Assembly (NCBI GenBank): GCA_017651165.1
Contig: JAGCDH010000015.1
Location: 13,748 to 77,747, forward strand
Direction of reading: 5' to 3'
From: Bacilli bacterium
Lineage (GTDB): Bacteria; Bacillota_I; Bacilli_A; RFN20; CAG-826
Length of the DNA stretch: 64,000 nt
The notes under the pieces are model-generated. The model did no database searches. It was not told the origin of the DNA and worked only from the letters and a program-made list of their open reading frames with translations. A program made the position numbers and the translations under genes. Shown piece by piece: positions 14,090-41,327 of this stretch (within the stretch, counting starts at the first letter, position 1; every line of letters starts with the position of its first letter).

Positions 14090-14434
14090 TTATTTGTTTT
14101 CTCGAAGAATCCTTTCGCAATATTCTCTCAATGGTTTGATATCTTTGTTGGCAGTTGCCCAAACTCTTTCGACTTTGATGGTTCCGTATCCATGAACTAT
14201 TCTGTTTCTCATACCACGCATTTTCCCCCAAGGGACACCGGAATAATCCTTTAGAAACTCCTTTCCATATTTGCCTGCCAATTCTCCTATTTGGAGTAGA
14301 TGGAAACAGACAATTTCTTTAATGTCTTGGTTCTCTGAGAACTCTTCTTTGGTCACTCCTTTGATTTTTTCTTCAATTCGATCGCAGTGTGCAATCATAG
14401 AAAGGAGCAATCCTTTGTCTGGTACAGTCAGCAT
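14090..14434 (-). CDS. hepT: HepT-like HEPN ribonuclease toxin (DUF86)
   Basis: 114 aa with RNRIVHGY (Rx4HxY HEPN motif). Overlaps the upstream NTase gene by 7 nt. Confidence 0.8.
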   Translation of the reverse strand: MLTVPDKGLLLSMIAHCDRIEEKIKGVTKEEFSENQDIKEIVCFHLLQIGELAGKYGKEFLKDYSGVPWGKMRGMRNRIVHGYGTIKVERVWATANKDIKPLREYCERILRENK

Positions 14435-14883
14435 ATTCTTATTTTATCCTCCTCAAGTTGCTGTCTAAAGAAATCCTGCATTTCAGATCCGATGGTAACA
14501 ACATCAACATTCTTACCCAAAGCTTCTTCCAATTCTTCGACAAGGCCGACTTCGTCTAAAAGTGTTTCGACATCCCCTGAGGAGCAATAGATGTCGACAT
14601 CACTATTTTCATTAGCTTCACCTCTGGCGTAACTTCCAAAGAGATACACCTCTTCAATGTGATGTTTTTCCACCACTGGTCTTATTCTGTTTTTGATTTC
14701 TTTGATGGTTAAGATTCCTGGCTTGATATCATTTAGAACCAAGCTAGTTAAATAAGCATTCCTATTTTCAACATTATCCAATTTGTCGATTAAATCGGTA
14801 TCACTTTTCTTCACGCGAAATTGATACATCTTATAGTTTTGCTTATTGTAATTAGAAATGTATTCTATTTGATTTGACGCCAT
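14428..14883 (-). CDS. mntA: MntA-like nucleotidyltransferase antitoxin with an N-terminal RHH-like extension
   Basis: LFGSYARGEANENSDVDIY (GSx10DxD minimal NTase). The first ~60 aa (YQFRVKKSDTDLIDKLDNVENRNAYLTSLVLNDI) resemble a strand-helix-helix DNA-binding module. Confidence 0.8.
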   Translation of the reverse strand: MASNQIEYISNYNKQNYKMYQFRVKKSDTDLIDKLDNVENRNAYLTSLVLNDIKPGILTIKEIKNRIRPVVEKHHIEEVYLFGSYARGEANENSDVDIYCSSGDVETLLDEVGLVEELEEALGKNVDVVTIGSEMQDFFRQQLEEDKIRIC

Positions 14884-26013: not shown

Positions 26014-29000
26014 TTAAAGCAATTGAAAGTATATTGAAACAATTGATGCTTTAGAAAAATGAATGCTAGACAAATTATCAAGCAATTCTTGGTATTTTTG
26101 CTTAAGAGCGTTGTTAGATTTAATCGTCTCTCGATATTCAAAGTACAATTCACAAACAAAAGTTTCAAGAATAGTTTTTGATTCTCTTAGTTTGTTAAGC
26201 TCATCGTCATTAATTAAACTTTTAACAAAACTATTAATAACTTCTAAAACTTCCGGCATCAAAGAATCGGATGGGTATGTTAAAATCTTACGGAGAATGG
26301 CATTTAAGCAAATAGGATTATTAAGTTTGTATAAAGCAATCAATTTATGCTTTTGGAAAACATTCAAAGATAGATTGCTTCTTTTCTTAGAAGAACCATA
26401 ATTATTTTTTATAAATGCCATTCCTAATTTAATTTCATTATTAATATCAAGTTCTTTAATGCTTTCGAATGAAGCCAATTCAAAATCTATTACCTTAAAT
26501 AAGTATTCTTTGGCATCATCAGAAGCAAATAATAATGATTCCAATTCACACAGAGCGCGATTAATTGTTTCAAACACCGCTCTGCAATATTTGTGTGTGC
26601 TAATATACGAAAAAAGGAATTCAATAGTTTTTGTGGCAGAAGGATAATCTGCGAATAACGGTTTGCTTATATGCACCGCAAGATTGCTTTTAGAAAAGCT
26701 GAGTGGTCTTCTTTGATCCTCAATCATCATTTTATCAAATAAGGCTCCCACCATTTTAAGCCCTTCACCAAGCCTGCAGTTTTGGACTGTCAAAAACAAC
26801 TCACAAGCCTTTTCTAAATAATACGGATCACACTTTTTAAAATCCAATGAATCAATATGAAACTTTTTATTATTAAATAAACAAGCTTCTATAATTATTT
26901 GTTTTTTCTCTTCCTCTTTACTTTTTAAAGACTCAAACTGTTCTTGAGAAAACAACTTATTTGGATTGTTACCAAAAATCTCATAATGAACAGTCGAACA
27001 ACCTATCAAAGCATTGAGGCAACTGTTTCTAAGTTCTTCATCTACTGCTAGAAATCCTACTATGTAAGGAGCTTGTTGCGCTGTGTCTATATCGTTAATT
27101 GAACTAGTCAGCACCTTGAAAGCATATCTCTTAATCCAATCTCTTTGTTGCTCGGAAATATCGAACTTGATTTGCCCTACCAAAGCCAAAATAAGGGAAT
27201 TATCAAAAACAAATACCCTATCAGCGTCAATGCCGTTCATCCATATTTCGCAATGCTTATTTCTTTCATCATAAGTGATCGTTTTATCAATAATGATGAC
27301 AGATATAGAATATACAAGCCACCTTGAGAAAACGGTCATTTCGTTTGTAGGCAACGACAAGATATAGTCAACAAGAGCTTTTGCTCGTTCAATGTCTCTG
27401 CGGTGCAAGATTTCAGCCACTTCATTTTCGATATATTTACTTCTGTCAATATAGTTTTCTTTCTTTTGAATTTGTTCTTTTCTTTCGGCCAACATTTGCT
27501 TTGGACTTTTGATACTGCCGTCGTATCCTTCGTAGTAAGTTGTAATTCGCTTGTCTTTTTTATATTTGGAATAAATGATAGAAAACTTTTCTTTATAAAC
27601 ATTTTGATCATAGTTATCAACAAAGAAAAGATTGTATAAGGATGAGCCCAAATCTAATTTGCGTCTCAAGTCATACTTTTTCTTATAAGGAACTCCCAGG
27701 GAAGCAAAAATATGGTTCTCAAAAAATTGCTTGTTTGAATCTACCTCGTTTTCTTCGTGAAAAAGTATTATATCGTTAATTACTATTTCATACGAATTAG
27801 CTAATGCAAAAATGCCATCAGGATAATAACAAAACAAATAATAATCGATAAAAGATAATAGCGAAAGAGAAGCAACAGTAGCCGAATTCTTAACACATAT
27901 TTCATATATTCGTTTAACAACCGCCTTACATAGTTCTTTGTTCGAAGCGCTATTTTTTAAAAGTTTTTCTGTTTCAAGTTTTGCAACATAAAACATATCC
28001 GAGATGAAAGTTGAACTAGACAATTCTGACTCGCCCAAAGAAAACAAATCACTATGAAAAACAAATGATTTGTTTATTCCGTTAGCTAAAGTAACTTCTA
28101 TCTTACTGGCGTTTTCTTTTGTAAGAAGATTGCCCCCAGCAAAATCCGCAAGTTTAAACAGATAACACAAAGCAAGAGAAAAATTGGATCTTATTAAAGT
28201 GATGAAAAAATTAGAAACAAGAGGATAATAACGATAATCAAGTTCGTCAGATAAACTATGAGCTCCTTCAGAAAAACCAAAGCGATCTTTAAATCTGGTA
28301 TCAAAACCATCATAATGCGGAAAAATAGTCGCTCCGGTTTTTTTATTTGGATTAAGCGTGAAAAACTTATATGAAATATCTGTCATAAAAGAAGCAAAAT
28401 CTTCCGAATAAACTATTTGTTCGTTGAGAGAATCTTCGATATGGTATTTTAATAGACTTATCAAAATCCTCTTTCCGTCTTCGTAAAAATTATAGAGGTA
28501 TTTTTCAAGGATGCCGTTCATGAGAGGGATAAACCATTTAACAGAATGTTGCTGAATATAAAAAGGGACAGTCATTAAAACATCTATCAAATCAAAATCA
28601 ATCCATTCCTCATTGATTAACAGATTAAATACTTCTTCTGTGATATCACTGATATGTTTGGAAGCTACTGAGATATATGTCTTTTGCTGAATTAAGCCAT
28701 TTAAAAGACCAATAACATCTGCCAAATTAATCTTTCCGTGGCGAATCAAATCTAAAGGAAGATTTTCTAATAGTGCCAATCTACCAGCACCTATCGGTTT
28801 AAAAACAAAGTCCGAATTGCGCTTTGCTGCTTCGAACGCATATTCGTTACATATTTCGATAAAAGTTGAATAATCAATGTCGTTATACTTTGCGAGGAAA
28901 CTAATAAATGCTTGGCAATTATCCGAAATCAATATGCCAGCAACTGTGCTCTTGAAATATCTCTCGCGATGACACCCAATGAGTATTTCAGCGACAGCAT

Positions 29001-30585
29001 CATAATTCATTTCGTAGATTAAATCGCCAATCCAAATCTGATATCTCCTAAAGCCGCTTTCGCCATATTTGATGATGCCATCTAAAAACGAGTCAACGCT
29101 TTCTTTGTTTTTAAAGTCATCGGATAAATATTGGCAAAAACATATATCTTCAAAAAGATCGTATTTCATCCTTATTCCATACTTTTCATTTTTTAAAACG
29201 ACGCCGTTGTTAATAAGGATGCTTAAAACCTTTTCATCAACAAGAGATTCGTCAATTCCTAGTTTTCTTTCTTTAGACCTCTCAATAACAATGTCTTTGA
29301 CTGTTTTTATCAATAGGTGTCTATTATCTATTTTCTTCTCTGAAAGACAAATACATTTGTCATAAATCACCCTTTTAAGTTCGGCAACGCTGGTAATATT
29401 ACTATCAATAGAATTCTTAACAATAATATCAACGTATAAAGGTGTCGTAACAACCTCGGAAAAGCTTTTTCCAAGTTTCTTCAAAACAGGAAACTCTTTG
29501 AGCAAGATATTCTTTTCTTCTGTTGAAAGGTTGTCTATGGCAACAGAACATAGGTCTTTTTCGTATTTTAAAAAGAGGTTTTGAAAATGAAGATAATCAC
29601 GTGTCCTACAGGTGACAAAGATTTTTAAATTATCGTACTCTCTGGTTAATAGTAGTAATTCGTCGATAGTTTTATCTTTGCCGAGATAATCTGACACAAA
29701 TTCCAGAGAATCAATACAAAATGTCACTATTTTATTTTTTGTATAATTCAACAATTTTCTTAAATCTATTGACCAAAGATCGTTAATGTTTTTTGCATTA
29801 ATCACTTCTTCTGCTCTGGCAAACAAAAGAATCTCACTATCTTTTATTACTTCCTTGCAAATGGCAGACTTACCAGAACCGGCATCACCTTTGATAACAA
29901 TTATCTTTGATTTACTGCCGCGAATTGTTTTAATTGTTGCTGATCTATCCAAATGAAACCCGTTATTGCCGATTGTTGTGAATATGTCATCCAAAAAGCA
30001 TCCTTTTGATTTTTTTACGGCATTAATTAATTTCGCGCTTATATCACCGACACTAACCGCTTCTTCATAAAGATATTCATATACTCTATTCCTAAACGTT
30101 TTATCATATCTTGATTTTTTTATGACGTCACTCAAAAACACAATATCGCTTTCAGGATTAAATTCGATTCCGTCTATATTTTCTTTAGAAAGCGATTTGA
30201 TATCAGCCATATTAAGAAGAAAGAAAGTAATCCTTTTTATGTCTTTGACATCTTTGTCTTCCTTTTTCCTCAATTCTTTAAATGATTTCAAAGTACTCGT
30301 TATTTTAGCCTTTGAATATTTGGTAACACTCACTTGTATAAACACGTCACCATCTCTGGACTTTAAATCAACGCATTTCCATCCGGGTTTGATAGCATTT
30401 AAATTGCAAAAATCTTGATTGTAATATGCCTCACATATTTCTTTTGCAAAATCCTCAAAAAGAATAGCTTCATCAATTAAACCCGCCGATATGCTTGCAT
30501 TAACTACATTTGTATAGTTTTCAATTCTGTCCTTGATGAAATCTATTTGTTTTTTGATAGGTGTTTTATCCATAATTGCTTTCAT
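26014..30585 (-). CDS. NACHT/STAND-class NTPase, 1523 aa, with N-terminal effector-like domain and long helical C-terminal region
   Basis: Walker A IKGDAGSGKSA, Walker B IVTFCIDSLEF (hhhhDxhDE-like), sensor-1-like IFVTCRTRDY. N-terminal CVDLKSRDGDVFIQVSVTK is a possible Mrr/PD-(D/E)xK-like core. About 1100 aa of helical repeats follow. Confidence 0.6.
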   Translation of the reverse strand: MKAIMDKTPIKKQIDFIKDRIENYTNVVNASISAGLIDEAILFEDFAKEICEAYYNQDFCNLNAIKPGWKCVDLKSRDGDVFIQVSVTKYSKAKITSTLKSFKELRKKEDKDVKDIKRITFFLLNMADIKSLSKENIDGIEFNPESDIVFLSDVIKKSRYDKTFRNRVYEYLYEEAVSVGDISAKLINAVKKSKGCFLDDIFTTIGNNGFHLDRSATIKTIRGSKSKIIVIKGDAGSGKSAICKEVIKDSEILLFARAEEVINAKNINDLWSIDLRKLLNYTKNKIVTFCIDSLEFVSDYLGKDKTIDELLLLTREYDNLKIFVTCRTRDYLHFQNLFLKYEKDLCSVAIDNLSTEEKNILLKEFPVLKKLGKSFSEVVTTPLYVDIIVKNSIDSNITSVAELKRVIYDKCICLSEKKIDNRHLLIKTVKDIVIERSKERKLGIDESLVDEKVLSILINNGVVLKNEKYGIRMKYDLFEDICFCQYLSDDFKNKESVDSFLDGIIKYGESGFRRYQIWIGDLIYEMNYDAVAEILIGCHRERYFKSTVAGILISDNCQAFISFLAKYNDIDYSTFIEICNEYAFEAAKRNSDFVFKPIGAGRLALLENLPLDLIRHGKINLADVIGLLNGLIQQKTYISVASKHISDITEEVFNLLINEEWIDFDLIDVLMTVPFYIQQHSVKWFIPLMNGILEKYLYNFYEDGKRILISLLKYHIEDSLNEQIVYSEDFASFMTDISYKFFTLNPNKKTGATIFPHYDGFDTRFKDRFGFSEGAHSLSDELDYRYYPLVSNFFITLIRSNFSLALCYLFKLADFAGGNLLTKENASKIEVTLANGINKSFVFHSDLFSLGESELSSSTFISDMFYVAKLETEKLLKNSASNKELCKAVVKRIYEICVKNSATVASLSLLSFIDYYLFCYYPDGIFALANSYEIVINDIILFHEENEVDSNKQFFENHIFASLGVPYKKKYDLRRKLDLGSSLYNLFFVDNYDQNVYKEKFSIIYSKYKKDKRITTYYEGYDGSIKSPKQMLAERKEQIQKKENYIDRSKYIENEVAEILHRRDIERAKALVDYILSLPTNEMTVFSRWLVYSISVIIIDKTITYDERNKHCEIWMNGIDADRVFVFDNSLILALVGQIKFDISEQQRDWIKRYAFKVLTSSINDIDTAQQAPYIVGFLAVDEELRNSCLNALIGCSTVHYEIFGNNPNKLFSQEQFESLKSKEEEKKQIIIEACLFNNKKFHIDSLDFKKCDPYYLEKACELFLTVQNCRLGEGLKMVGALFDKMMIEDQRRPLSFSKSNLAVHISKPLFADYPSATKTIEFLFSYISTHKYCRAVFETINRALCELESLLFASDDAKEYLFKVIDFELASFESIKELDINNEIKLGMAFIKNNYGSSKKRSNLSLNVFQKHKLIALYKLNNPICLNAILRKILTYPSDSLMPEVLEVINSFVKSLINDDELNKLRESKTILETFVCELYFEYRETIKSNNALKQKYQELLDNLSSIHFSKASIVSIYFQLL

Positions 30586-33645: not shown

Positions 33646-34416
33646 TTATTTTAAACCGCAAATAATTCTATGATTTATTTCGTTACAAATATTATCTAAG
33701 TCTGGCATTAAATGGAATTCATCATAACCAAGTTTCTCTAAATATAAGAGCGCTTCCGCTCTGATGGCATCATCAATAATGATAATTTGAGATTTCTCGG
33801 CGATTCTATTCTCTACAGATTCTTTTGTTAATTTGGTCGGAACAACAAAAAGCCCTTGTTGGACAAGCATCCTTTGATTGCGATAGTTAGGCTTCGCTGT
33901 GTATATTCCAGTTTTCTTTGATAGTTTCTTAAATTCCTTATTTAGTATATCGCAATAAGGCACATCTATTTGAAATGCCATATCATCTAACGTCAGGGTT
34001 GCTGTTTTTGAATTAAAATATGGCTCTGACTTAATTGAGTCATATATAACGTTGGTATTTGTTTTATCGAGCGCATATATGATATATTCTCCGTCTTTTC
34101 CCTTGGCGTTTCTTAGGCAAAAGAATAATGCAACATAAGGATTGCTCGTGAAATCAATTAATCTAGTCATTAACCCACAATGTTGCGCCAGTGCAAGAAA
34201 TTCCCAACAGTTATTAGCGGTTGAATATAAACCATAGTATTTTTCGAATGTTTTTAATATTTGATATTCCTTTTTCGAATAGTCATTATCTCTGATTATT
34301 TTTGGATACAATTGATTCTTATTATTGACGCCACGAAATATAGCATTTCTTTCCATCAACTCGTCAAATAGTTGTTTTAATTCTACTAAAGTTTTTATTC
34401 TAATAACGCTTCCCAT
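33646..34416 (-). CDS. FRG-domain protein
   Basis: IFRGVNN (FRG motif) and LALAQHCGLMTRLIDFTSNPYVALFF (AQHyG.pT.llD.T block). AGGAG RBS. Confidence 0.65.
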   Translation of the reverse strand: MGSVIRIKTLVELKQLFDELMERNAIFRGVNNKNQLYPKIIRDNDYSKKEYQILKTFEKYYGLYSTANNCWEFLALAQHCGLMTRLIDFTSNPYVALFFCLRNAKGKDGEYIIYALDKTNTNVIYDSIKSEPYFNSKTATLTLDDMAFQIDVPYCDILNKEFKKLSKKTGIYTAKPNYRNQRMLVQQGLFVVPTKLTKESVENRIAEKSQIIIIDDAIRAEALLYLEKLGYDEFHLMPDLDNICNEINHRIICGLK

Positions 34417-34494: not shown

Positions 34495-36774
34495 CTATTC
34501 CTTGTTATCAATAGTCCACTTCAAAACATCTTCGAAATCTAAAAGGCAACAGTCAAATCCATACGATAATTCTTGATAAAAGCGATTGAGGTATTTATAT
34601 ATTTCATCCATGTTTGTTAGATTTCCACAATACAGGAACCTAAAACCAGTTTTATGAGTTCTAAGGCCTGTATTGATCAAATCGTTGAACGTTTTTAATT
34701 CTTGGTTTAATTGATTTAGGGTGCCATCAGCATTTCTTTGAAGAAGCATTCCGCTACTATCCACTGGAGCAAAATTATTAACGACCATTACAAGTGATCT
34801 GGATTTTTGTATTATTCTCGTTGTGTTGTTAAAACCAAGATCTCTATCTTCTTCATTGCAACAATAATTATTCAAAAACACTCTTATTCCATTTACACTT
34901 AATAAATCGCATAGTTTCTTGGCGGCGGCATAAGTGCCGTTTTCGCTACATGTCCCATGATACGCAATAAAAACATCGTAATCATAGTCTTCGTTAAGAT
35001 TTATCGTCGTCTCTGAAGCCATTATTTCGTTGATTCTATTTTGTATAATATCTCTTACCAAATCGCTTTTGGCATAAATGTTTAATGATGCAGTAGCACG
35101 AGTCATCAAAGTATATAGTTGCATATAAATATGTTGAAGGTTCTTCGTGTCTTTGTATGAAAACTCTTGCATTACATCTGGAATATATAAATAAATCGAT
35201 TCTGCTTCCCTAGAGATAATTTCGTATGGAGTTAAATAATACTTGGGAGCTATTTCATCGCTGAATAAGTAGTTAAAATAATCACTATAATTAGGTGGGA
35301 TTTTTGTTATGGTTTTATCACCACTTTCAAAATAATAACTAGTGACATTAGAAAGCGCTATCGAAACATAATGTTTTCTCTTACTTAAATCTTCTTCAAA
35401 AGCTTCTATAAAATCATCAGCATTATCAAAATTGATAATTTGATATTCACCAGGATTGATCGGTTTTATGCCGTCAAATCCTAACAGATATAAAATATTG
35501 GCCATTATTTCTTTTGGTATGCCTATAGTTTCATAAAACTTATGTTGTCTAAATGGCTTATCTGAGTAATACTCTTTGATTACATCAAATCCTTCGTCTT
35601 TATTAACGTTAATTCTTTGAAGATTATCACCAAAAAAGATTGTGCATTTATGGTTTTTAATATTCTTTATTGCCTCGAATGGATTAAACGCTGAATAATG
35701 CTTACCTGTATAGAAGCTGTTATAACTACCCATTCTTCCTAATCTTTGTGCTTCATCAACTATCAAAAAAGAAAAATCATCCACAAAAGATTTATCCATT
35801 TTGCTCTTTAGCCAACAACCGGTCTGCCTTGAAAAGTCATGATGATAAATCCTATTGCCAGGAAACTCTAAATTCATTGTTTTAAAAGCGCTCTTTAAAT
35901 CTTTATAAAACTTGTAATTCATCAAGAGAAGTTTGCAGTCTGGATACTTATTCAACAAAAGCATAGATAAAATGGTTTTGCCGCTTCTAGCCGGGCCTTC
36001 TATCGTAATATATTCAACGTTATTATCTATTTCAAAACAAATGTCATCATAGTTTTCCTTCGTTTGCTGAAATAATTCGAATTCACGTTCTCCCTTTGTA
36101 TAGGCATTAACACAATCAATTAATTCTTTATCTTTTGCTTCTGCTAAAACAAGTTCATCACTAACATTTTGAACAAATCTTACATAACGGGTAGCACCAA
36201 ATATTTCTGTTTTATTTGGATACTTTTTAAAAACAGAACTCGTATTCCAATAAAATATAGAAAAGTCATTCTTAGTTATTTGGCTCTTAGAATCGCAAAA
36301 GACCAAAACAATATAGACATACGAATGGACAAACCAAGCAAGGTGTCGCTTTTTAAGATTTCTAAAAATCATGTTGGCCAACCATTCGTCAAGAACCCCA
36401 CGATTTGTGGTTTCAGAGGCTAATAAACTGCTATTGATTGACCAATGAACATCAACATCTGGTTTATAAACAATAACATCTCTTTTAAGATTTGGAACAC
36501 GCGTACCAAAGGTAGTATTCCATAGGTTTTTATCAATAAAGCAGAAAAAACATGTTCTGGAATTGCGTTGCATTAAACGTCTGGTTTTGGTCAATCTTTC
36601 TGTCGTATCTTTAACAATGCTTGCATAAAAACAGTCAAAAGAAGGCATTGATAGTTTTTCAGAGATTGGTTTATCGAATTTAATATCCGCAATATGTTTG
36701 AAAAAATAGGAAATGTAGTCCTCCTCACGAGAAGGTGTGCTATTTAGTAGGAAATCTCTATAATTCACTTTCAT
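34495..36774 (-). CDS. multidomain protein: N-terminal putative PD-DxK nuclease-like region, DUF2075-type P-loop NTPase, C-terminal TIR domain
   Basis: Walker A EGPARSGKT, Walker B FLIVDEAQRL. C-terminal YDVFIAYHG...IRVFLNN...SLVMVVNN follows the TIR_2 pattern. N-terminal YKPDVDV...IVLVFCDSK is a tentative nuclease core. The track start at 36870 is TTG, so ATG at 36774 (GAAGAGGA upstream) was chosen. Confidence 0.6.
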   Translation of the reverse strand: MKVNYRDFLLNSTPSREEDYISYFFKHIADIKFDKPISEKLSMPSFDCFYASIVKDTTERLTKTRRLMQRNSRTCFFCFIDKNLWNTTFGTRVPNLKRDVIVYKPDVDVHWSINSSLLASETTNRGVLDEWLANMIFRNLKKRHLAWFVHSYVYIVLVFCDSKSQITKNDFSIFYWNTSSVFKKYPNKTEIFGATRYVRFVQNVSDELVLAEAKDKELIDCVNAYTKGEREFELFQQTKENYDDICFEIDNNVEYITIEGPARSGKTILSMLLLNKYPDCKLLLMNYKFYKDLKSAFKTMNLEFPGNRIYHHDFSRQTGCWLKSKMDKSFVDDFSFLIVDEAQRLGRMGSYNSFYTGKHYSAFNPFEAIKNIKNHKCTIFFGDNLQRINVNKDEGFDVIKEYYSDKPFRQHKFYETIGIPKEIMANILYLLGFDGIKPINPGEYQIINFDNADDFIEAFEEDLSKRKHYVSIALSNVTSYYFESGDKTITKIPPNYSDYFNYLFSDEIAPKYYLTPYEIISREAESIYLYIPDVMQEFSYKDTKNLQHIYMQLYTLMTRATASLNIYAKSDLVRDIIQNRINEIMASETTINLNEDYDYDVFIAYHGTCSENGTYAAAKKLCDLLSVNGIRVFLNNYCCNEEDRDLGFNNTTRIIQKSRSLVMVVNNFAPVDSSGMLLQRNADGTLNQLNQELKTFNDLINTGLRTHKTGFRFLYCGNLTNMDEIYKYLNRFYQELSYGFDCCLLDFEDVLKWTIDNKE

Positions 36775-36873
36775 CTTAGATCTACTATCCTCTTCACAAA
36801 AATAATAAGAAAAGATGATTGATAAATCAATCCAAACTAAGGAGCCAAACGCAATTAATATAATTAACAATCA

Positions 36874-36902
36874 ATAATAAAAATGGCGTTGTTTCCAACG
36901 CC
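36874..36902 (-). terminator. rho-independent terminator after the Abi_2/HEPN gene
   Basis: Minus strand GGCGTTG-GAAA-CAACGCC followed by ATTTTTATTATT. Confidence 0.7.
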
Positions 36903-36931
36903 ACTTATTTAAAATAGCAATAATATATTGC

Positions 36932-37603
36932 TTAAATAGTTTTCACAAACTTTCTTAAATCGGCAGTAATACCGCCATGACCATTTTTACCATGTCTATA
37001 TCTTTCAGGTAATAACTGTCTTAGATTCTTAATGTTGTTCTCCAGAGAATTTGATTGATATCCATCGACAGTGCAGCTCTTAAAATTATATGTTTTTAAA
37101 AACTTATGATGACCTATGCAATTCCTTAATTCTTTAACTGCTTGTAAGTTCTCGTTGGTGCCCACTCCACCAAATAGTTCGTCTTTATCCGACCGCGGTA
37201 ATGCTTGCACTTGTTGAATCAATGTTCCTAAATCTGTATCTTGAAGAATTTCAAATAATGGCTTTCCTTTAGTAATATTATCTTTAATGCTATTGTGGTT
37301 GCCTTTCCCGTTAATCCAGAACGATTGATTCAGATCATTTTCATATTTATTGGATATATAGGCTCTTATATATTCTTCTAATGTCGCTAGATAAATATAT
37401 AAAGTATCCCTTAATCCTTTATCTAAGCGTAGTTCGTCTGATATTTGTTTCCAGATTATTGCTTGGTTATTGTTCTCTTTTAAAAGATAATCATAAATCT
37501 CTTTATGAAGAGATAAACCCTTTACTTTAATGTAAAAAAGCGCGTCATCGCGCTCCTCATTACTATTGAATATTATTTTAGATAAGAATTGTTCTTTGGT
37601 CAT
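36932..37603 (-). CDS. Abi_2 (AbiD/AbiF-like) HEPN-domain protein
   Basis: LRLDKGLRDTLYIYLATLEEYIRAYISN and ELRNCIGHHKFL (Rx4H) fit the Abi_2 family pattern. The start overlaps the upstream stop as ATGA. Confidence 0.55.
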   Translation of the reverse strand: MTKEQFLSKIIFNSNEERDDALFYIKVKGLSLHKEIYDYLLKENNNQAIIWKQISDELRLDKGLRDTLYIYLATLEEYIRAYISNKYENDLNQSFWINGKGNHNSIKDNITKGKPLFEILQDTDLGTLIQQVQALPRSDKDELFGGVGTNENLQAVKELRNCIGHHKFLKTYNFKSCTVDGYQSNSLENNIKNLRQLLPERYRHGKNGHGGITADLRKFVKTI

Positions 37604-38241
37604 TTTGGTTGGTATTTATTATAGAAGTTATTCACTCCTTCATAGAATATATCAATTGTTGGAATTCTATTATTTTCGTGTTTTTTCTTTTCTTCTATGA
37701 TACGTGGTATCACAAACTCTTCAAGTAGTTCTCTTTGAGCGTTGCCACATAGATTATTAAATCTTTGATAAATATATGTATTCTTACTAGGTAGTTCAAC
37801 CCAAGTATATTGGTCTTTTCCGTTTCTTCTGATTCTTAGTGATTCAGTATGATCGATAATGACAAAATCAAAAGAGAACTTTTCTAAATCTGCATCAAAC
37901 TTATTATTGCTTTTAGAACATCTAACGGTCACCACTGTTGTGGAATCTTCCACCTTCTCATTCTTATTAGCGCATTCAGTGAAAGCACACAAAAATGCTT
38001 TCTTAATATCAGTGGGTTTAAGACTACCTTTGCAGTTATGTGTTAACACTATTTGGTAATCTAAATCATATTTACCATTACTATCTTGGATAACACATCT
38101 ACGTTTTTGAGAACCAATTAGTTTGATATTGAACTTATATAGCTTATGAATCTTCTTATGCTTTCTTACATCATGTATCAATTTATTCGCTCTAGCACGA
38201 GCTTCACGATATGAGTTGTAAGGAAGAAGTATGGGGATCAT
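37600..38241 (-). CDS. minimal nucleotidyltransferase-fold protein (MNT/SMODS-like)
   Basis: LIGSQKRRCVIQDSNGKYDLDYQIVL (GS...DxD) with a later acidic strand FSFDFVIID; 213 aa. Confidence 0.5.
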   Translation of the reverse strand: MIPILLPYNSYREARARANKLIHDVRKHKKIHKLYKFNIKLIGSQKRRCVIQDSNGKYDLDYQIVLTHNCKGSLKPTDIKKAFLCAFTECANKNEKVEDSTTVVTVRCSKSNNKFDADLEKFSFDFVIIDHTESLRIRRNGKDQYTWVELPSKNTYIYQRFNNLCGNAQRELLEEFVIPRIIEEKKKHENNRIPTIDIFYEGVNNFYNKYQPK

Positions 38242-38247
38242 TATATG

Positions 38248-40191
38248 CTATTCGTTGTTTTTAATAATATCTATAAACAATTTGTTTCTTGCGTTTGCAT
38301 CTGCACAAATGGTTTTAGCCGAAATGATATATGTATGGCATGGTATAGGTTTATTATCAGCATTCAAAATGTTCTCGTTATAATAGTAAAACATATGCTC
38401 ATCATTGTTATCAAACATTCTTTTAATTCCGTGTATCTTTTTAATTCTGTTTAAAAACACATCATCAAAAGAAGTGATTATGAATCCATAAAGAGCATTG
38501 ATGTCTTCTAAGTTTGCAGCGATTATTCCATTATTTCTATCTATTTCTGAAATCGCATCTATTTTCTTGTTGTAGTCCGCACCAAGCGCTTTAAATTCTA
38601 CGACCACTGCAGATTTATTAGAGTAAAACAGCGCCAAATCAGGCTCAACAGCATCATCAACTCCATCAGCAATATCTGCATTTTTAATTTCTTCTAGAAT
38701 TTTCTTAACCTTTTTGTCACTAAATGCATTATTGCAAGACATAAACTTGTCATCTAACAACCAAATATTATTTTTCAGCCTATCCTTCAAAGATTCACCA
38801 AGTACAAGTCCTTGTGGAATAAAGAGATCGTGTAGTAATTTTTCAACTGGTTCATTTCTCTCGATGTATTTTGCAAGGCAATCTATAACTTGTTGTCTGT
38901 ATAAGAAATATTTCGATAGTTCTCGATTGGAAAAATCGCTTAAATTAACAATTCCTTCCACGAGTTCTTCTCTATTGATGTCGTCAACCATAAAGATTTT
39001 TGATACTTCGTCTAACGCCTTTTCCTTATCTTTGCCATACTTGGTTTCAGATGCAGAAATTAGTTTCTTTTCGTCAACGATGATTGAATCATCTTCTTCT
39101 ATATATTTCTTAAGATATGGGTATTTGTTAATACATTCTAGTTTTTTCTTTGCGTTATCTTCTACAACAGCTGGATATTCACTGACGATTATTTTTTCAA
39201 TTTGTTTGGTGATTTCTTCTTGAATCTCTTTTGAGGAAAAACTAAATAAGGCATTTTCGCTATTGCCAAAAACAAAACCGGTTCTAGAATCGTTAACACT
39301 GTTGTTCAAATAATTTGATTTGACGAGACAAATCATCGAATCATCATTCGGCAACGAAGAAATAATATCTCCTTTTTCATTTATGTCGGTTATGCCCCTA
39401 TCATCTGCGCACAAAACAATTTGTCTTTTTTTGGCACCATCTTTAATAAAGCGATAATACAATTTAAACGATTCGCTATATGAATCTTTTGACATTGTAA
39501 ATAGCACTTTTTTAAGGATAAGCAAATCTTTATTGGTTATCGTTTGTTTGTTTTCTTCGGAATCATCAGATATTTCGATGAAAAAATTTCTTCCCTTTTC
39601 ATTCAACAGGAATAGCTTAATAGCAAAAGTATTTAAGATTGTCTTGCGAATTTCTTCGAGTGGTAAGAACACGTAGTTGTTTTGATTTAATATGCACTCA
39701 GTAAAATCAATTCTTGTCTCATTAACCGCAACTTTTTTAGAAGAGACATTATCTATAATTGACAAGCATTCTTCGTTTGCTTCATCAAATTCTTTACTAA
39801 AATTGATTATTACTCTTTTTGTTTTGATTTGACTATTAATTTTCACCATCGAAAATGCCTTAAGCCAAGTAAATCTGCCAACTCCCTTACACCCCAATCC
39901 TAGCTTATAAGTTGATAGGTATTCTAAGAACGAATCAATGTTGTCCTGATTAAAGCCATCACCATCATCAAATATACTAAAACTATCGTAAACTTTAGAA
40001 TCAACTATTGATGGTACTGTATGAAAAACTATTTTAATGTTTTGTGCATTTGCTTCGAGCGAGTTCGAAAGAGCTTCATAAAGAACTTGTAAAATTGAAA
40101 TCTTTACTTTGAAACTATCAACGATATTTTTAACTTTTGCTTTCATACTATTTATTATTGTGACCGCTTTTCTTATTTGAATAAAATGCAA
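38248..40191 (-). CDS. GHKL (Bergerat-fold) ATPase with C-terminal PD-ExK nuclease-like domain
   Basis: N-box EALSNSLEANA, G1 DDGDGF, G2 GCKGVGRFTW. C-terminal EPDLALFYSNKSAVVVEFK (PD...ExK). The track start at 40191 is TTG; the first ATG is at 40146 (MKAKVKN). The start is uncertain. Confidence 0.55.
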   Translation of the reverse strand: MHFIQIRKAVTIINSMKAKVKNIVDSFKVKISILQVLYEALSNSLEANAQNIKIVFHTVPSIVDSKVYDSFSIFDDGDGFNQDNIDSFLEYLSTYKLGLGCKGVGRFTWLKAFSMVKINSQIKTKRVIINFSKEFDEANEECLSIIDNVSSKKVAVNETRIDFTECILNQNNYVFLPLEEIRKTILNTFAIKLFLLNEKGRNFFIEISDDSEENKQTITNKDLLILKKVLFTMSKDSYSESFKLYYRFIKDGAKKRQIVLCADDRGITDINEKGDIISSLPNDDSMICLVKSNYLNNSVNDSRTGFVFGNSENALFSFSSKEIQEEITKQIEKIIVSEYPAVVEDNAKKKLECINKYPYLKKYIEEDDSIIVDEKKLISASETKYGKDKEKALDEVSKIFMVDDINREELVEGIVNLSDFSNRELSKYFLYRQQVIDCLAKYIERNEPVEKLLHDLFIPQGLVLGESLKDRLKNNIWLLDDKFMSCNNAFSDKKVKKILEEIKNADIADGVDDAVEPDLALFYSNKSAVVVEFKALGADYNKKIDAISEIDRNNGIIAANLEDINALYGFIITSFDDVFLNRIKKIHGIKRMFDNNDEHMFYYYNENILNADNKPIPCHTYIISAKTICADANARNKLFIDIIKNNE

Positions 40192-40322
40192 CGATAAATT
40201 ACGCTTACTCCATTTTCATCGTTTTCAAATCTAATTAATTGTAACAGAAAAACTCTTCATTAATCATATTAATACCGTTATTGATAATTATTAAATAGTC
40301 TAAATAGAAAAAGAGGGAACCT

Positions 40323-41327
40323 TTATTGTGGTTTTGTTTCTTCTTCCTTTGGTTCGTCCTCTGCTTCGTTGTTTGAAGATTCTTCGACTCTTTTTGGGTC
40401 GTTGTTTTTGTTTTCCAGTTTTTCTTTCTTTAATTGAAGATATTCTCTTAAATATTTTTCTCTTTTTTGCTTCTTTTCAGAATCTGACAAAGTATCATCG
40501 AGATCAATATCATTTAATGCCTTTACAAATAATTCCTCCTCAAAAGCACAAACTATTGTTTCGATAATAATGTCATAATCTTTTTTCATATATGGCTTTT
40601 CTAAGAGGGCCTTCTTTTTTCGGGAAAAAACTGTCACAACATCCATAAACACCTGAACAAAAGTGTTTGTTGTAAAGAATAAAGATAAAGTAAACAAAAG
40701 CGAGAGCACTTCTTTGTTTATAGCTCTATCCAAAAAGAACAAGCCACCAGAAAAAAGGGTTAAGAAAAAAGCGTTAATTATCAAGAAAACTAAAACAAAA
40801 TTCATATCAGAAAACTCTTCTTTAAGATTGTTGATAAACGATACTTGTTCGAGTCTTTGTTTTCCAATCATCTCATCAGGGTTTAATGTTGACGCTTGCT
40901 CAATTTTTGCTTCTTGATTTTGTATCCTGAAAAGAAAGATAGCTGCAGACACACCAAAAATAGCCCATTCAATACCTAGCAAAGAATCACAAAGCGTTAA
41001 ATCAACATGAGAAGAGTTATAAATCGCAACCGAAAAAATAGATAAGAGAATAAGGAAAGTTAATAATGATCTCAAATGAGTCATTACAAATTTTGACAAC
41101 TTGTTATATCTGTTAATTGAATACATTATAATCGCCGTGATAACAAGAGACAGCATTAAAGAAACGACAATAAAAACAATTAAAATAACATCTCTGTTCT
41201 TTATTGTATAAATGCTATCTAAATAAAATAATATTGGAGTTCCGATTGAGAAAAACAAAAACCAAAAAACAATGGTAAGCAGAATAATAACAACTACCAA
41301 TTTGATAACCGATATAATTTTTTTCAT
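40323..41327 (-). CDS. polytopic membrane protein of unknown function with acidic/Lys-rich C-terminal tail
   Basis: Several hydrophobic helices in two clusters separated by a polar loop. The C-terminal ~90 aa are highly charged. No motif recognised. Confidence 0.4.
   Translation of the reverse strand: MKKIISVIKLVVVIILLTIVFWFLFFSIGTPILFYLDSIYTIKNRDVILIVFIVVSLMLSLVITAIIMYSINRYNKLSKFVMTHLRSLLTFLILLSIFSVAIYNSSHVDLTLCDSLLGIEWAIFGVSAAIFLFRIQNQEAKIEQASTLNPDEMIGKQRLEQVSFINNLKEEFSDMNFVLVFLIINAFFLTLFSGGLFFLDRAINKEVLSLLFTLSLFFTTNTFVQVFMDVVTVFSRKKKALLEKPYMKKDYDIIIETIVCAFEEELFVKALNDIDLDDTLSDSEKKQKREKYLREYLQLKKEKLENKNNDPKRVEESSNNEAEDEPKEEETKPQ

Follow-up and report, generated by a model that had tools for sequence, protein, structure and literature searches.

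Three adjacent genes (genes 1, 2 and 3) lie on the minus strand of a 64,000-nt stretch of contig JAGCDH010000015.1 from a Bacilli bacterium; this whole stretch is called the window here. We found that these genes very probably represent two independent anti-phage modules, gene 1 and genes 2+3, and not one trio. Gene 1 encodes, in all likelihood, a single-protein defense nuclease of the GHKL-Shedu type. Genes 2 and 3 are almost certainly one functional unit, and encode a compact nucleotidyltransferase (NTase) and a short HEPN protein. A preliminary description of this DNA had read the three genes as a single three-component system in which the NTase-HEPN pair was subordinate to the ATPase-nuclease. 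This reading did not survive a comparison of loci, since the pair was present at 0 of 80 gene-1 loci and gene 1 at 1 of 59 pair loci. All positions given below are those of the whole window, and gene 1 residues follow the numbering of the 647-aa open reading frame (ORF). The features of the locus are as follows:

38248..40146, minus strand: gene 1, GHKL ATPase, middle region and C-terminal PD-(D/E)xK core, 632 aa from the ATG at 40146
38248-40191, minus strand: mechanical ORF of gene 1, 647 aa from the TTG at 40191
37600..38241, minus strand: gene 2, predicted compact cGAS/DncV-like nucleotidyltransferase (CD-NTase fold) with GS, DxD and D intact, 213 aa
36932..37603, minus strand: gene 3, short AbiF/Abi_2-type HEPN protein with RNxxxHH, predicted RNase effector, 223 aa
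38242..38247, minus strand: spacer of 6 nt between genes 1 and 2, read directly in the sequence
37600..37603, minus strand: ATGA in which the stop of gene 2 and the start of gene 3 overlap (translational coupling), visible in the sequence itself
36906-36881, minus strand: intrinsic-terminator-like hairpin closing the unit, with an 11-bp stem (5 G-C pairs), a loop of 4 and then a T-run, TTATTATT

The layout given in the preliminary description, namely three packed minus-strand genes, the first two 6 nt apart and the last two overlapping by ATGA, with a terminator behind them, was confirmed in the sequence. The motifs quoted there are likewise all present, and within each family no positions are more strongly conserved. 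The 6-nt spacer leaves no room for a separate promoter, and therefore both modules are probably co-transcribed in this genome. This 6-nt junction is kept only in the lineage of an 82%-identical gene-1 homolog (L081-083 and L100). The 4-nt overlap between genes 2 and 3 was also found at several other pair loci, L089, L091, L099 and L165 among them, and further loci have overlaps of 8-29 nt. None of the three genes is a chance ORF, because each has many conserved homologs. The start codon of gene 1 is most likely the ATG at 40146 (MKAKVKN...), which gives a protein of 632 aa, given that an identical database protein (P0001) has 632 aa and that nearly all homologs begin there, within a few residues. 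In other words, the previously described length of 647 aa is correct for the mechanical ORF from the TTG, and the protein itself is likely to be 632 aa long. Between these two start codons there is a weak sigma-70-like match (40154-40181, minus strand; TTCAAA, a 16-nt spacer and AATAAT). It is a consensus match only; transcription from it would produce a gene-1 mRNA almost without a leader. NCBIfam and PHROGs yielded nothing useful for genes 1, 2 or 3, and PDB searches with the single sequences of all three proteins gave nothing significant.

To describe the neighborhoods of gene 1, we collected 424 gene-1 relatives in 185,579 species genomes (one genome per species) and analyzed the best 80 of these 424 loci. 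The tblastn analysis of genes 2 and 3 found neither gene in these best 80 loci. The neighbors there varied; often they were large genes arranged in a restriction-modification-like manner (judged from gene size only), and in some cases there were none at all. At the locus of the 82%-identical homolog the trio is kept, with 82, 77 and 67% identity for genes 1, 2 and 3, respectively, in another neighborhood where an AbiH gene comes next. The 61%-identical homolog adjoins an operon of a cyclic-oligonucleotide-based anti-phage signaling system (CBASS) and is without the pair; the genes downstream of it are unrelated, and the 227- and 337-aa genes among them, which we considered as possible relatives of genes 2 and 3, turned out not to be related. 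The 52%-identical homolog follows a Z1/DUF4420/AIPR/methylase cluster in the setting of a mobile element, also without the pair. Seen from the other side, a gene-1 relative was found at only 1 of 59 metagenome gene-2 loci, a locus from the lineage of the 82%-identical homolog. Islands with an 88%-identical gene 2 carry a Lamassu-type gene set upstream in place of gene 1, at a gap of 2-20 nt; the set was recognized in L089 by an LmuB match (E 1e-30) and inferred in L165 from the same gene sizes. Thus, gene 1 is one of several interchangeable neighbors of the pair. As a separate observation, the 61%-identical homolog lies in L084 (1876-5989) 12 nt after an AAA_14/DUF4143 ATPase gene and the CBASS operon (SMODS/AGS_C plus SAVED), and on a second contig (L085) this AAA_14 gene is again found ahead of it.

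Genes 2 and 3, on the other hand, travel together. Approximately 190 homolog clusters were obtained for each of them, and across the two lists there were many pairs of clusters with a same-sized longest contig. A metagenome scan with the gene-2 alignment gave 59 loci, in 48 of which a gene-3 homolog directly follows. The remaining 11 consist of contigs that end just past gene 2, gene-2 fragments only, and one divergent pair (L152). The preliminary description had proposed checking the co-occurrence of homologs of the three genes; genes 2 and 3 proved to be linked (48/59), and gene 1 showed no linkage to either. The pair has its own upstream intergenic region in L091, where it lies beside a divergent helix-turn-helix gene, and in L094, where the surrounding island also contains Hachiman and AbiEii. 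The linkage extends to distant members: in L160, the NTase P0332 (~40% identity) is followed by a 188-aa gene-3 homolog (hhalign probability 96.9%) with an RNxxxH motif, and further distant pairs occur in L159 and L152. Two distant NTases of the gene-2 family occur alone.

A distant form of the pair was also found in a human-gut Caudoviricetes phage (PV036423.1, L164; 2298-3567), in reversed order and with a 26-nt overlap (hhalign 99.1% and 100%). It sits upstream of anaerobic ribonucleotide reductase genes, with no GHKL gene among the annotated neighbors, and this phage-borne copy may serve superinfection exclusion or counter-defense. As a whole, the family ranges over gut Bacillota, Alphaproteobacteria and Cloacimonadota, also occurs in phages, and is abundant in human and animal gut metagenomes. 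At three loci the NTase gene is frameshifted and the HEPN gene is intact, each time at a different site (L147 at ~1848, L148 at ~7440 and L150 at ~2333); in L100 (~8165) the HEPN gene is frameshifted and the NTase gene is intact. Errors of assembly, phase variation and genuine decay are all possible causes of these frameshifts, which have a bearing on which of the two partners can be spared. We conclude firmly that the two genes are functionally tied and that the catalytic sites of both the NTase and the HEPN protein are under selection.

Gene 1 matches Pfam HATPase_c_3 (E 3.6e-10; 40.4 bits versus a cut-off of 25), and this match was obtained for 29 of the 33 members of the gene-1 family. The residues N43, D75-x-G77-x-G79, G103/G105 and P517-D518...E532-x-K534 are invariant in 33 homologs with identities down to 21%, so that the GHKL and PD-ExK assignments of the preliminary description are supported. 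Two distant relatives from Shewanella (P0077 and P0078) carry the NCBI name ‘DUF4263 domain-containing protein’, and gene 1 is ~25% identical to gammaproteobacterial members that NCBI calls DUF4263. DUF4263 is the Shedu nuclease domain. Gu et al. placed Shedu homologs that combine a GHKL fold (HATPase_c_3) with a middle domain resembling that of Hsp90/MORC in the group with enzymatic N-terminal domains, and these are type I-D in their Discussion. Adams et al. reported that VcSduA from VSP-II of Vibrio cholerae, which combines a GHKL ATPase with a DUF4263 PD-(D/E)xK domain, protects alone, that the substitutions E27A and K557A each abolish its defense, and that this class was earlier named paraMORC3. 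In the alignment, E25 and K553 of the Shewanella protein, which are the equivalents of the ATPase glutamate and the nuclease lysine of VcSduA, correspond to E39 and K534 of gene 1.

Gene 1 therefore resembles GHKL-Shedu proteins in its N-terminal GHKL domain with Bergerat motifs, its middle region and its C-terminal PD-(D/E)xK core, as well as in its length (~630-670 aa) and its stand-alone occurrence in defense islands. It differs in that it is transcriptionally joined to another module here, and in that SduA_C stays below significance on the gene-1 branch. The latter result speaks against the assignment: Pfam SduA_C (PF14082) gave no match at E<=0.01 in gene 1 and 32 relatives (0/33). When the gene-1 family was compared with a true SduA_C protein by hhalign, the PD and ExK motifs were aligned, at a probability of 2.5%, which is not significant. 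A PDB profile search with the gene-1 alignment returned marginal matches to the GHKL domains of MutL/PMS (E 0.045 or weaker). Judged from architecture and motifs, which agree, gene 1 is of a kind already described as paraMORC3, Shedu type I-D and VcSduA, and we regard its identification as GHKL-Shedu as highly probable. The composition of the locus had been presented as one without a name; for gene 1, a catalogued name exists.

For gene 2, an exhaustive profile search gave 258 clusters at E<=1e-3 among 1.84 billion, and the alignment used here comprises 89 sequences. Among relatives with identities down to ~20%, G43-S44 and D59-x-D61 do not vary, and 87 of 89 keep D125. D125 lies 64 residues after D61, which we take to be a DncV/OAS-like spacing and not that of a minimal nucleotidyltransferase (MNT). 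The AlphaFold2 model of gene 2 has a pLDDT of 96. When it was compared with the PDB by Foldseek, each of the top 39 matches was to a CD-NTase or a cGAS-like receptor (E 9e-7 to 1e-3, TMq 0.40-0.62), including CdnB, DncV, CdnG, CdnD, CdnE and CdnC. The next matches were terminal transferases of the Cid1 type (poly(U) polymerases; E ~1e-3). Foldseek against viral structures found one giant-virus protein and nothing informative, and tblastn of gene 2 against plasmids gave no match. The ‘Cyclase’ profile for CBASS in PADLOC matched gene 2 weakly (3.6e-6) and the family member P0332 at 2e-10. No Pfam family was found for gene 2; Polbeta and NTP_transf_2 had no match at E<=1, and the SMODS and DncV models remained under threshold, with P0332 scoring 21.1 bits against DncV-like_NTFase, under its cut-off of 24.9. 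The top PDB sequence match of the gene-2 family profile was 8ysc, with related entries (5e-6; deposited as ‘Nucleotidyltransferase’), in which the GS, DxD and third-Asp positions were aligned. Thus, a profile check supports the GHKL and HEPN assignments through Pfam, but the NTase assignment is without a Pfam match and is based on the fold and the conserved catalytic residues.

The preliminary description had called gene 2 a minimal NTase, and had stated that the order of NTase and HEPN genes mirrors that of the MntA-HepT pair elsewhere in the window. That pair is real, and consists of MntA (151 aa, 14428-14883; Polbeta/NTP_transf_2 ~1e-15) and an overlapping HepT (114 aa, 14090-14434; HepT-like 1.3e-22), both on the minus strand. 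However, gene 2 scores on neither Polbeta nor NTP_transf_2, unlike this true MntA, and gene 3 is of the Abi_2 type, so that the proposed parallel fails. Based on this difference and on the CD-NTase fold, gene 2 is not an MNT; the model indicates that it is a very compact CD-NTase-like enzyme. What stands of the earlier assignment is an NTase with conserved GS, DxD and D.

Gene 3 matches Pfam Abi_2 (E 3e-8; 34.6 bits versus a cut-off of 25.6), and R160-N161...H165-H166 are invariant in 30 homologs. Its AlphaFold2 model (pLDDT 94.5) is compact and mostly helical, a globular HEPN of the AbiF fold, and the sole confident Foldseek match was 8vz6, the PbAbiF dimer with its non-coding RNA (ncRNA) (TMq 0.67, probability 1.0). 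The earlier identification of gene 3 as an Abi_2/HEPN protein with an Rx4H motif is therefore upheld. Profile matches in Pfam and PADLOC were limited to Abi_2 and AbiD models. We also considered PADLOC PDC-M34B as the identity of the pair, and dropped it because the match of gene 3 is weak (1.3e-3) and distant members of the pair are unmatched. AbiF-type HEPN proteins are intrinsically toxic and are neutralized by an upstream ncRNA; AbiF, AbiD and AbiD1 all need such an RNA. AbiF-type proteins are also thought to be ancestral to Cas13. In our locus, gene 3 is preceded without any intergenic space by the NTase gene, which lies where canonical AbiF loci have the ncRNA gene. A cmscan search of positions 36000-41000 against Rfam at E<=1 showed no RNA match, with three sub-threshold hits to unrelated families.

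The surroundings of the trio and of the pair were also analyzed. The neighboring genes in the window are as follows:

34495-36870, minus strand: SLFN-type helicase, 791 aa, directly downstream of the terminator; Schlafen group-3 helicase/AAA_22 core (Pfam 2e-8)
33646-34416, minus strand: FRG-domain protein, 256 aa, PADLOC candidate system PDC-S15 (E 5e-43), island member
26014-30585, minus strand: SMEK_N protein, 1523 aa, with an N-terminal SMEK domain (Pfam 2.8e-20)
40323-41327, minus strand: multi-pass membrane protein, 334 aa, with a Lys/Glu-rich tail, directly upstream of gene 1; no Pfam, PADLOC, NCBIfam or PHROGs family

A DUF2971 protein is also among the neighbors of the trio in the window. 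The C-terminal stretch of the 791-aa helicase (YDVFIAYHG...) looks TIR-like by eye, but no TIR or PADLOC model matches it; a homologous helicase follows the pair in L165. In L089, a 1578-aa SMEK_N protein comes directly after the pair, which indicates that SMEK_N and the pair recur in the same islands. The GC content is ~0.31 inside the island and 0.35-0.38 to the right of it, and the island is not clearly marked by base composition. In various lineages, the direct neighbors of the pair include Lamassu LmuB, PDC-S53, PDC-S31, SduA_C, Hachiman, AbiEii, a SNF2-plus-methylase set and AbiH. The PDC-S53 protein (905-911 aa with a superfamily 1 helicase C-terminus; E 4e-217 in PADLOC) starts 8 nt inside the gene-3 end and follows the pair in L129, L136, L142 and L143 (and in L099, L133, L135 and L146), forming an apparent three-gene operon of other composition. 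We considered whether the 565-aa, 911-aa and similar neighbors are variable third components of the pair, and rejected this, as they are the independent, catalogued LmuB, PDC-S53 and PDC-S31. In an alphaproteobacterial metagenome-assembled genome (L091-L093, 7344-8558), the pair is followed after 34 nt by a canonical Shedu gene (SduA_C, E 3.6e-32); this could be chance within islands or a weak hint of cooperation. The neighbors of the pair are the usual signature of a defense gene, a statement that refers to the neighbors observed and not to enrichment versus background. A role of the pair in defense is likely.

Each known system with which the pair can be compared agrees with it in part. It resembles type I CBASS as a two-gene cassette in defense islands, with a CD-NTase fold carrying GS, DxD and D and an adjoining predicted toxic effector. 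However, gene 2 has ~210 aa, whereas characterized CD-NTases have ~270-450 aa, the effector is an AbiF-type HEPN protein without a known sensor domain (SAVED, STING or Cap15-type), and the curated SMODS and DncV models stay under threshold. Gene 3 shares the AbiF fold and the Rx4H motif with the AbiF/Abi_2 type III toxin-antitoxin systems, but it is ~75 residues shorter than PbAbiF, and an upstream ncRNA region and an Rfam match are both absent. As in the type VII system HepT-MntA, an NTase gene is followed by an overlapping HEPN gene; the difference is a CD-NTase fold in place of an MNT, and Abi_2 in place of HepT/DUF86. Hailong is likewise a two-gene system in which the product of an NTase regulates the effector, and HalB/HalA provides a precedent for an inhibitory nucleotide signal. 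Unlike the soluble RNase predicted here, HalA is a membrane channel, and no priming tyrosine is conserved in our family; no HalB structure was among the top fold matches for gene 2 in Foldseek. In the animal OAS-RNase L system, a cGAS/OAS-fold NTase is paired with a HEPN-superfamily RNase. RNase L has been assigned to HEPN (PMC3710099). The pair shares no homology with OAS-RNase L beyond the superfamily level.

PADLOC-DB v2 holds no system model for the pair, and in the literature searched, the coverage of which was incomplete, we found no description of AbiF/Abi2 with a CD-NTase, SMODS or nucleotidyltransferase. Thus, a check of the catalogues separates the modules: gene 1 is of a known kind, and for the pair PADLOC-DB v2 has no system entry. 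The pair combines known kinds in one of two ways: either CD-NTase signaling has gained a new effector, or an AbiF toxin has gained a new regulator.

Our best explanation, which we put forward with some reserve, is that of two modules in which the pair uses an activating signal, following the logic of CBASS or OAS-RNase L. The two modules lie head to tail in a 3.3-kb block of a defense island and are probably co-transcribed here. In module 1, by analogy with VcSduA, a dimeric GHKL ATPase clamp would gate the C-terminal PD-(D/E)xK DNase, which would attack phage DNA. In module 2, the minimal CD-NTase-like enzyme would make a nucleotide or oligonucleotide ligand that controls the AbiF-like HEPN RNase: infection would switch the NTase on, its product would activate the RNase, RNA would be cleaved, and growth would stop or the infection would abort. 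What the enzymes do, which ligand is made, in which direction control runs and what triggers the response are all inferred here. A nucleotide signal made by the NTase had been mentioned as an alternative in the preliminary description; it is the better-supported reading, for a two-gene and not for a three-gene system. An activating signal is favored because the NTase gene is frameshifted beside an intact HEPN gene in L147, L148 and L150, a state that cells should not survive if the NTase were an essential antitoxin, and because of the CD-NTase fold, the reversible gene order and the solitary NTases of the family. Several points weigh on the other side. Gene 2 falls ~100 residues short of characterized CD-NTases, and no element that could sense infection is evident. 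Gene 3 has no recognizable sensor domain for cyclic nucleotides (such as SAVED, CARF or STING), and Pfam detects only Abi_2 in it. The three NTase frameshifts come from metagenome assemblies, and one of them, located in a T8 run, is possibly an error. AbiF proteins are toxic by themselves and neutralized by ncRNA, and an NTase gene in the place of that RNA gene fits an antitoxin. Finally, the gap between gene 1 and the pair is only 6 nt and the arrangement is kept at 82/77/67% in a second lineage, which makes functional cooperation possible.

Thus, the direction in which the NTase controls the RNase is not settled, and inhibition is nearly as likely as activation. It is possible, if somewhat doubtful, that there are two modules in which the NTase is a negative regulator (an antitoxin or guard) of an intrinsically toxic AbiF-like RNase, released when a phage interferes with the NTase or its product. 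A constitutive oligonucleotide could fill the RNA-binding groove in place of the AbiF ncRNA, as in the logic of Hailong HalB/HalA, or the NTase could covalently nucleotidylylate the HEPN protein, as in that of the type VII system MntA/HepT. The closest solved structure to gene 3 is an AbiF bound to its inhibitory ncRNA, and AbiF, AbiD and AbiD1 are tolerated only with an upstream RNA. In our locus, gene 3 has neither intergenic space nor an Rfam match beside it, the ATGA-coupled NTase gene occupies the position of the RNA gene, and gene 3 is without a known nucleotide-sensor domain, all of which fit this explanation. NTases that repress their effectors are also documented for Hailong and HepT/MntA. 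On the other hand, gene 2 is frameshifted beside an intact gene 3 at three loci, its fold is that of a CD-NTase rather than an MNT, with no match to Polbeta or NTP_transf_2 as in the true MntA of the window, and the phage copy has the reversed gene order. In addition, no tyrosine is conserved in the gene-2 tail among the 89 relatives, and therefore HalB-type priming is not supported.

The remaining two explanations are both improbable, and the less so is one without signaling. In this case, the NTase would act on RNA 3' ends like Cid1, or on tRNA like MenT and AbiEii, with the HEPN RNase acting on the same RNA pool, or the pair would be a plain addiction module without immunity. Cid1 poly(U) polymerases do come next after the CD-NTases in the fold comparison (E ~1e-3), tRNA-modifying NTase toxins such as AbiEii and MenT are known, and the pair lies on mobile, patchily distributed islands. 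However, CD-NTases outrank the terminal transferases by two to three orders in E-value and hold all 39 top places, and the neighbors are consistently defense genes. HEPN cleavage produces ends with a 2',3'-cyclic phosphate, and such ends cannot be extended by an NTase, which also counts against this explanation. Very improbable is that the three genes form one genuine three-component system, with foreign DNA being sensed by the GHKL ATPase-nuclease, which would act by way of the NTase-HEPN pair or control it. The 6-nt gap and the single terminator imply co-transcription, the trio is kept in a second lineage with a different neighborhood, and the canonical Shedu gene 34 nt downstream of the pair in L091-L093 is a second adjacency of the Shedu type. 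Nevertheless, the pair is at none of the 80 gene-1 loci and gene 1 at one of the 59 pair loci; the pair has its own upstream intergenic region in L091 and L094, and occurs in a phage without an annotated GHKL neighbor. Moreover, Lamassu-type genes replace gene 1 where gene 2 is 88% identical, and VcSduA-type proteins work alone.

Based on the explanation of two modules, correcting the trio reading ensures that a known single-gene GHKL-Shedu is not presented as a component of a new system by adjacency alone. For the pair, we tentatively propose that genes 2 and 3 represent an undescribed two-gene immune family, in which a minimal CD-NTase of ~210 aa may govern a HEPN RNase of the AbiF/Cas13 lineage by means of a ligand. 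Such a family would be either a bacterial counterpart of OAS-RNase L, if the ligand is activating, or an enzyme-made replacement of the AbiF RNA antitoxin, if it is inhibitory. Gene 2 is among the smallest proteins with the CD-NTase fold, which makes it attractive for defining a minimal catalytic core. If the proposal is true, then there is either a new effector class for CD-NTase signaling or an RNA antitoxin that can be replaced by a nucleotide-making enzyme, and the pair links the cGAS/DncV-like NTases with the AbiF-type HEPN RNases, two immune lineages that have so far been studied apart.

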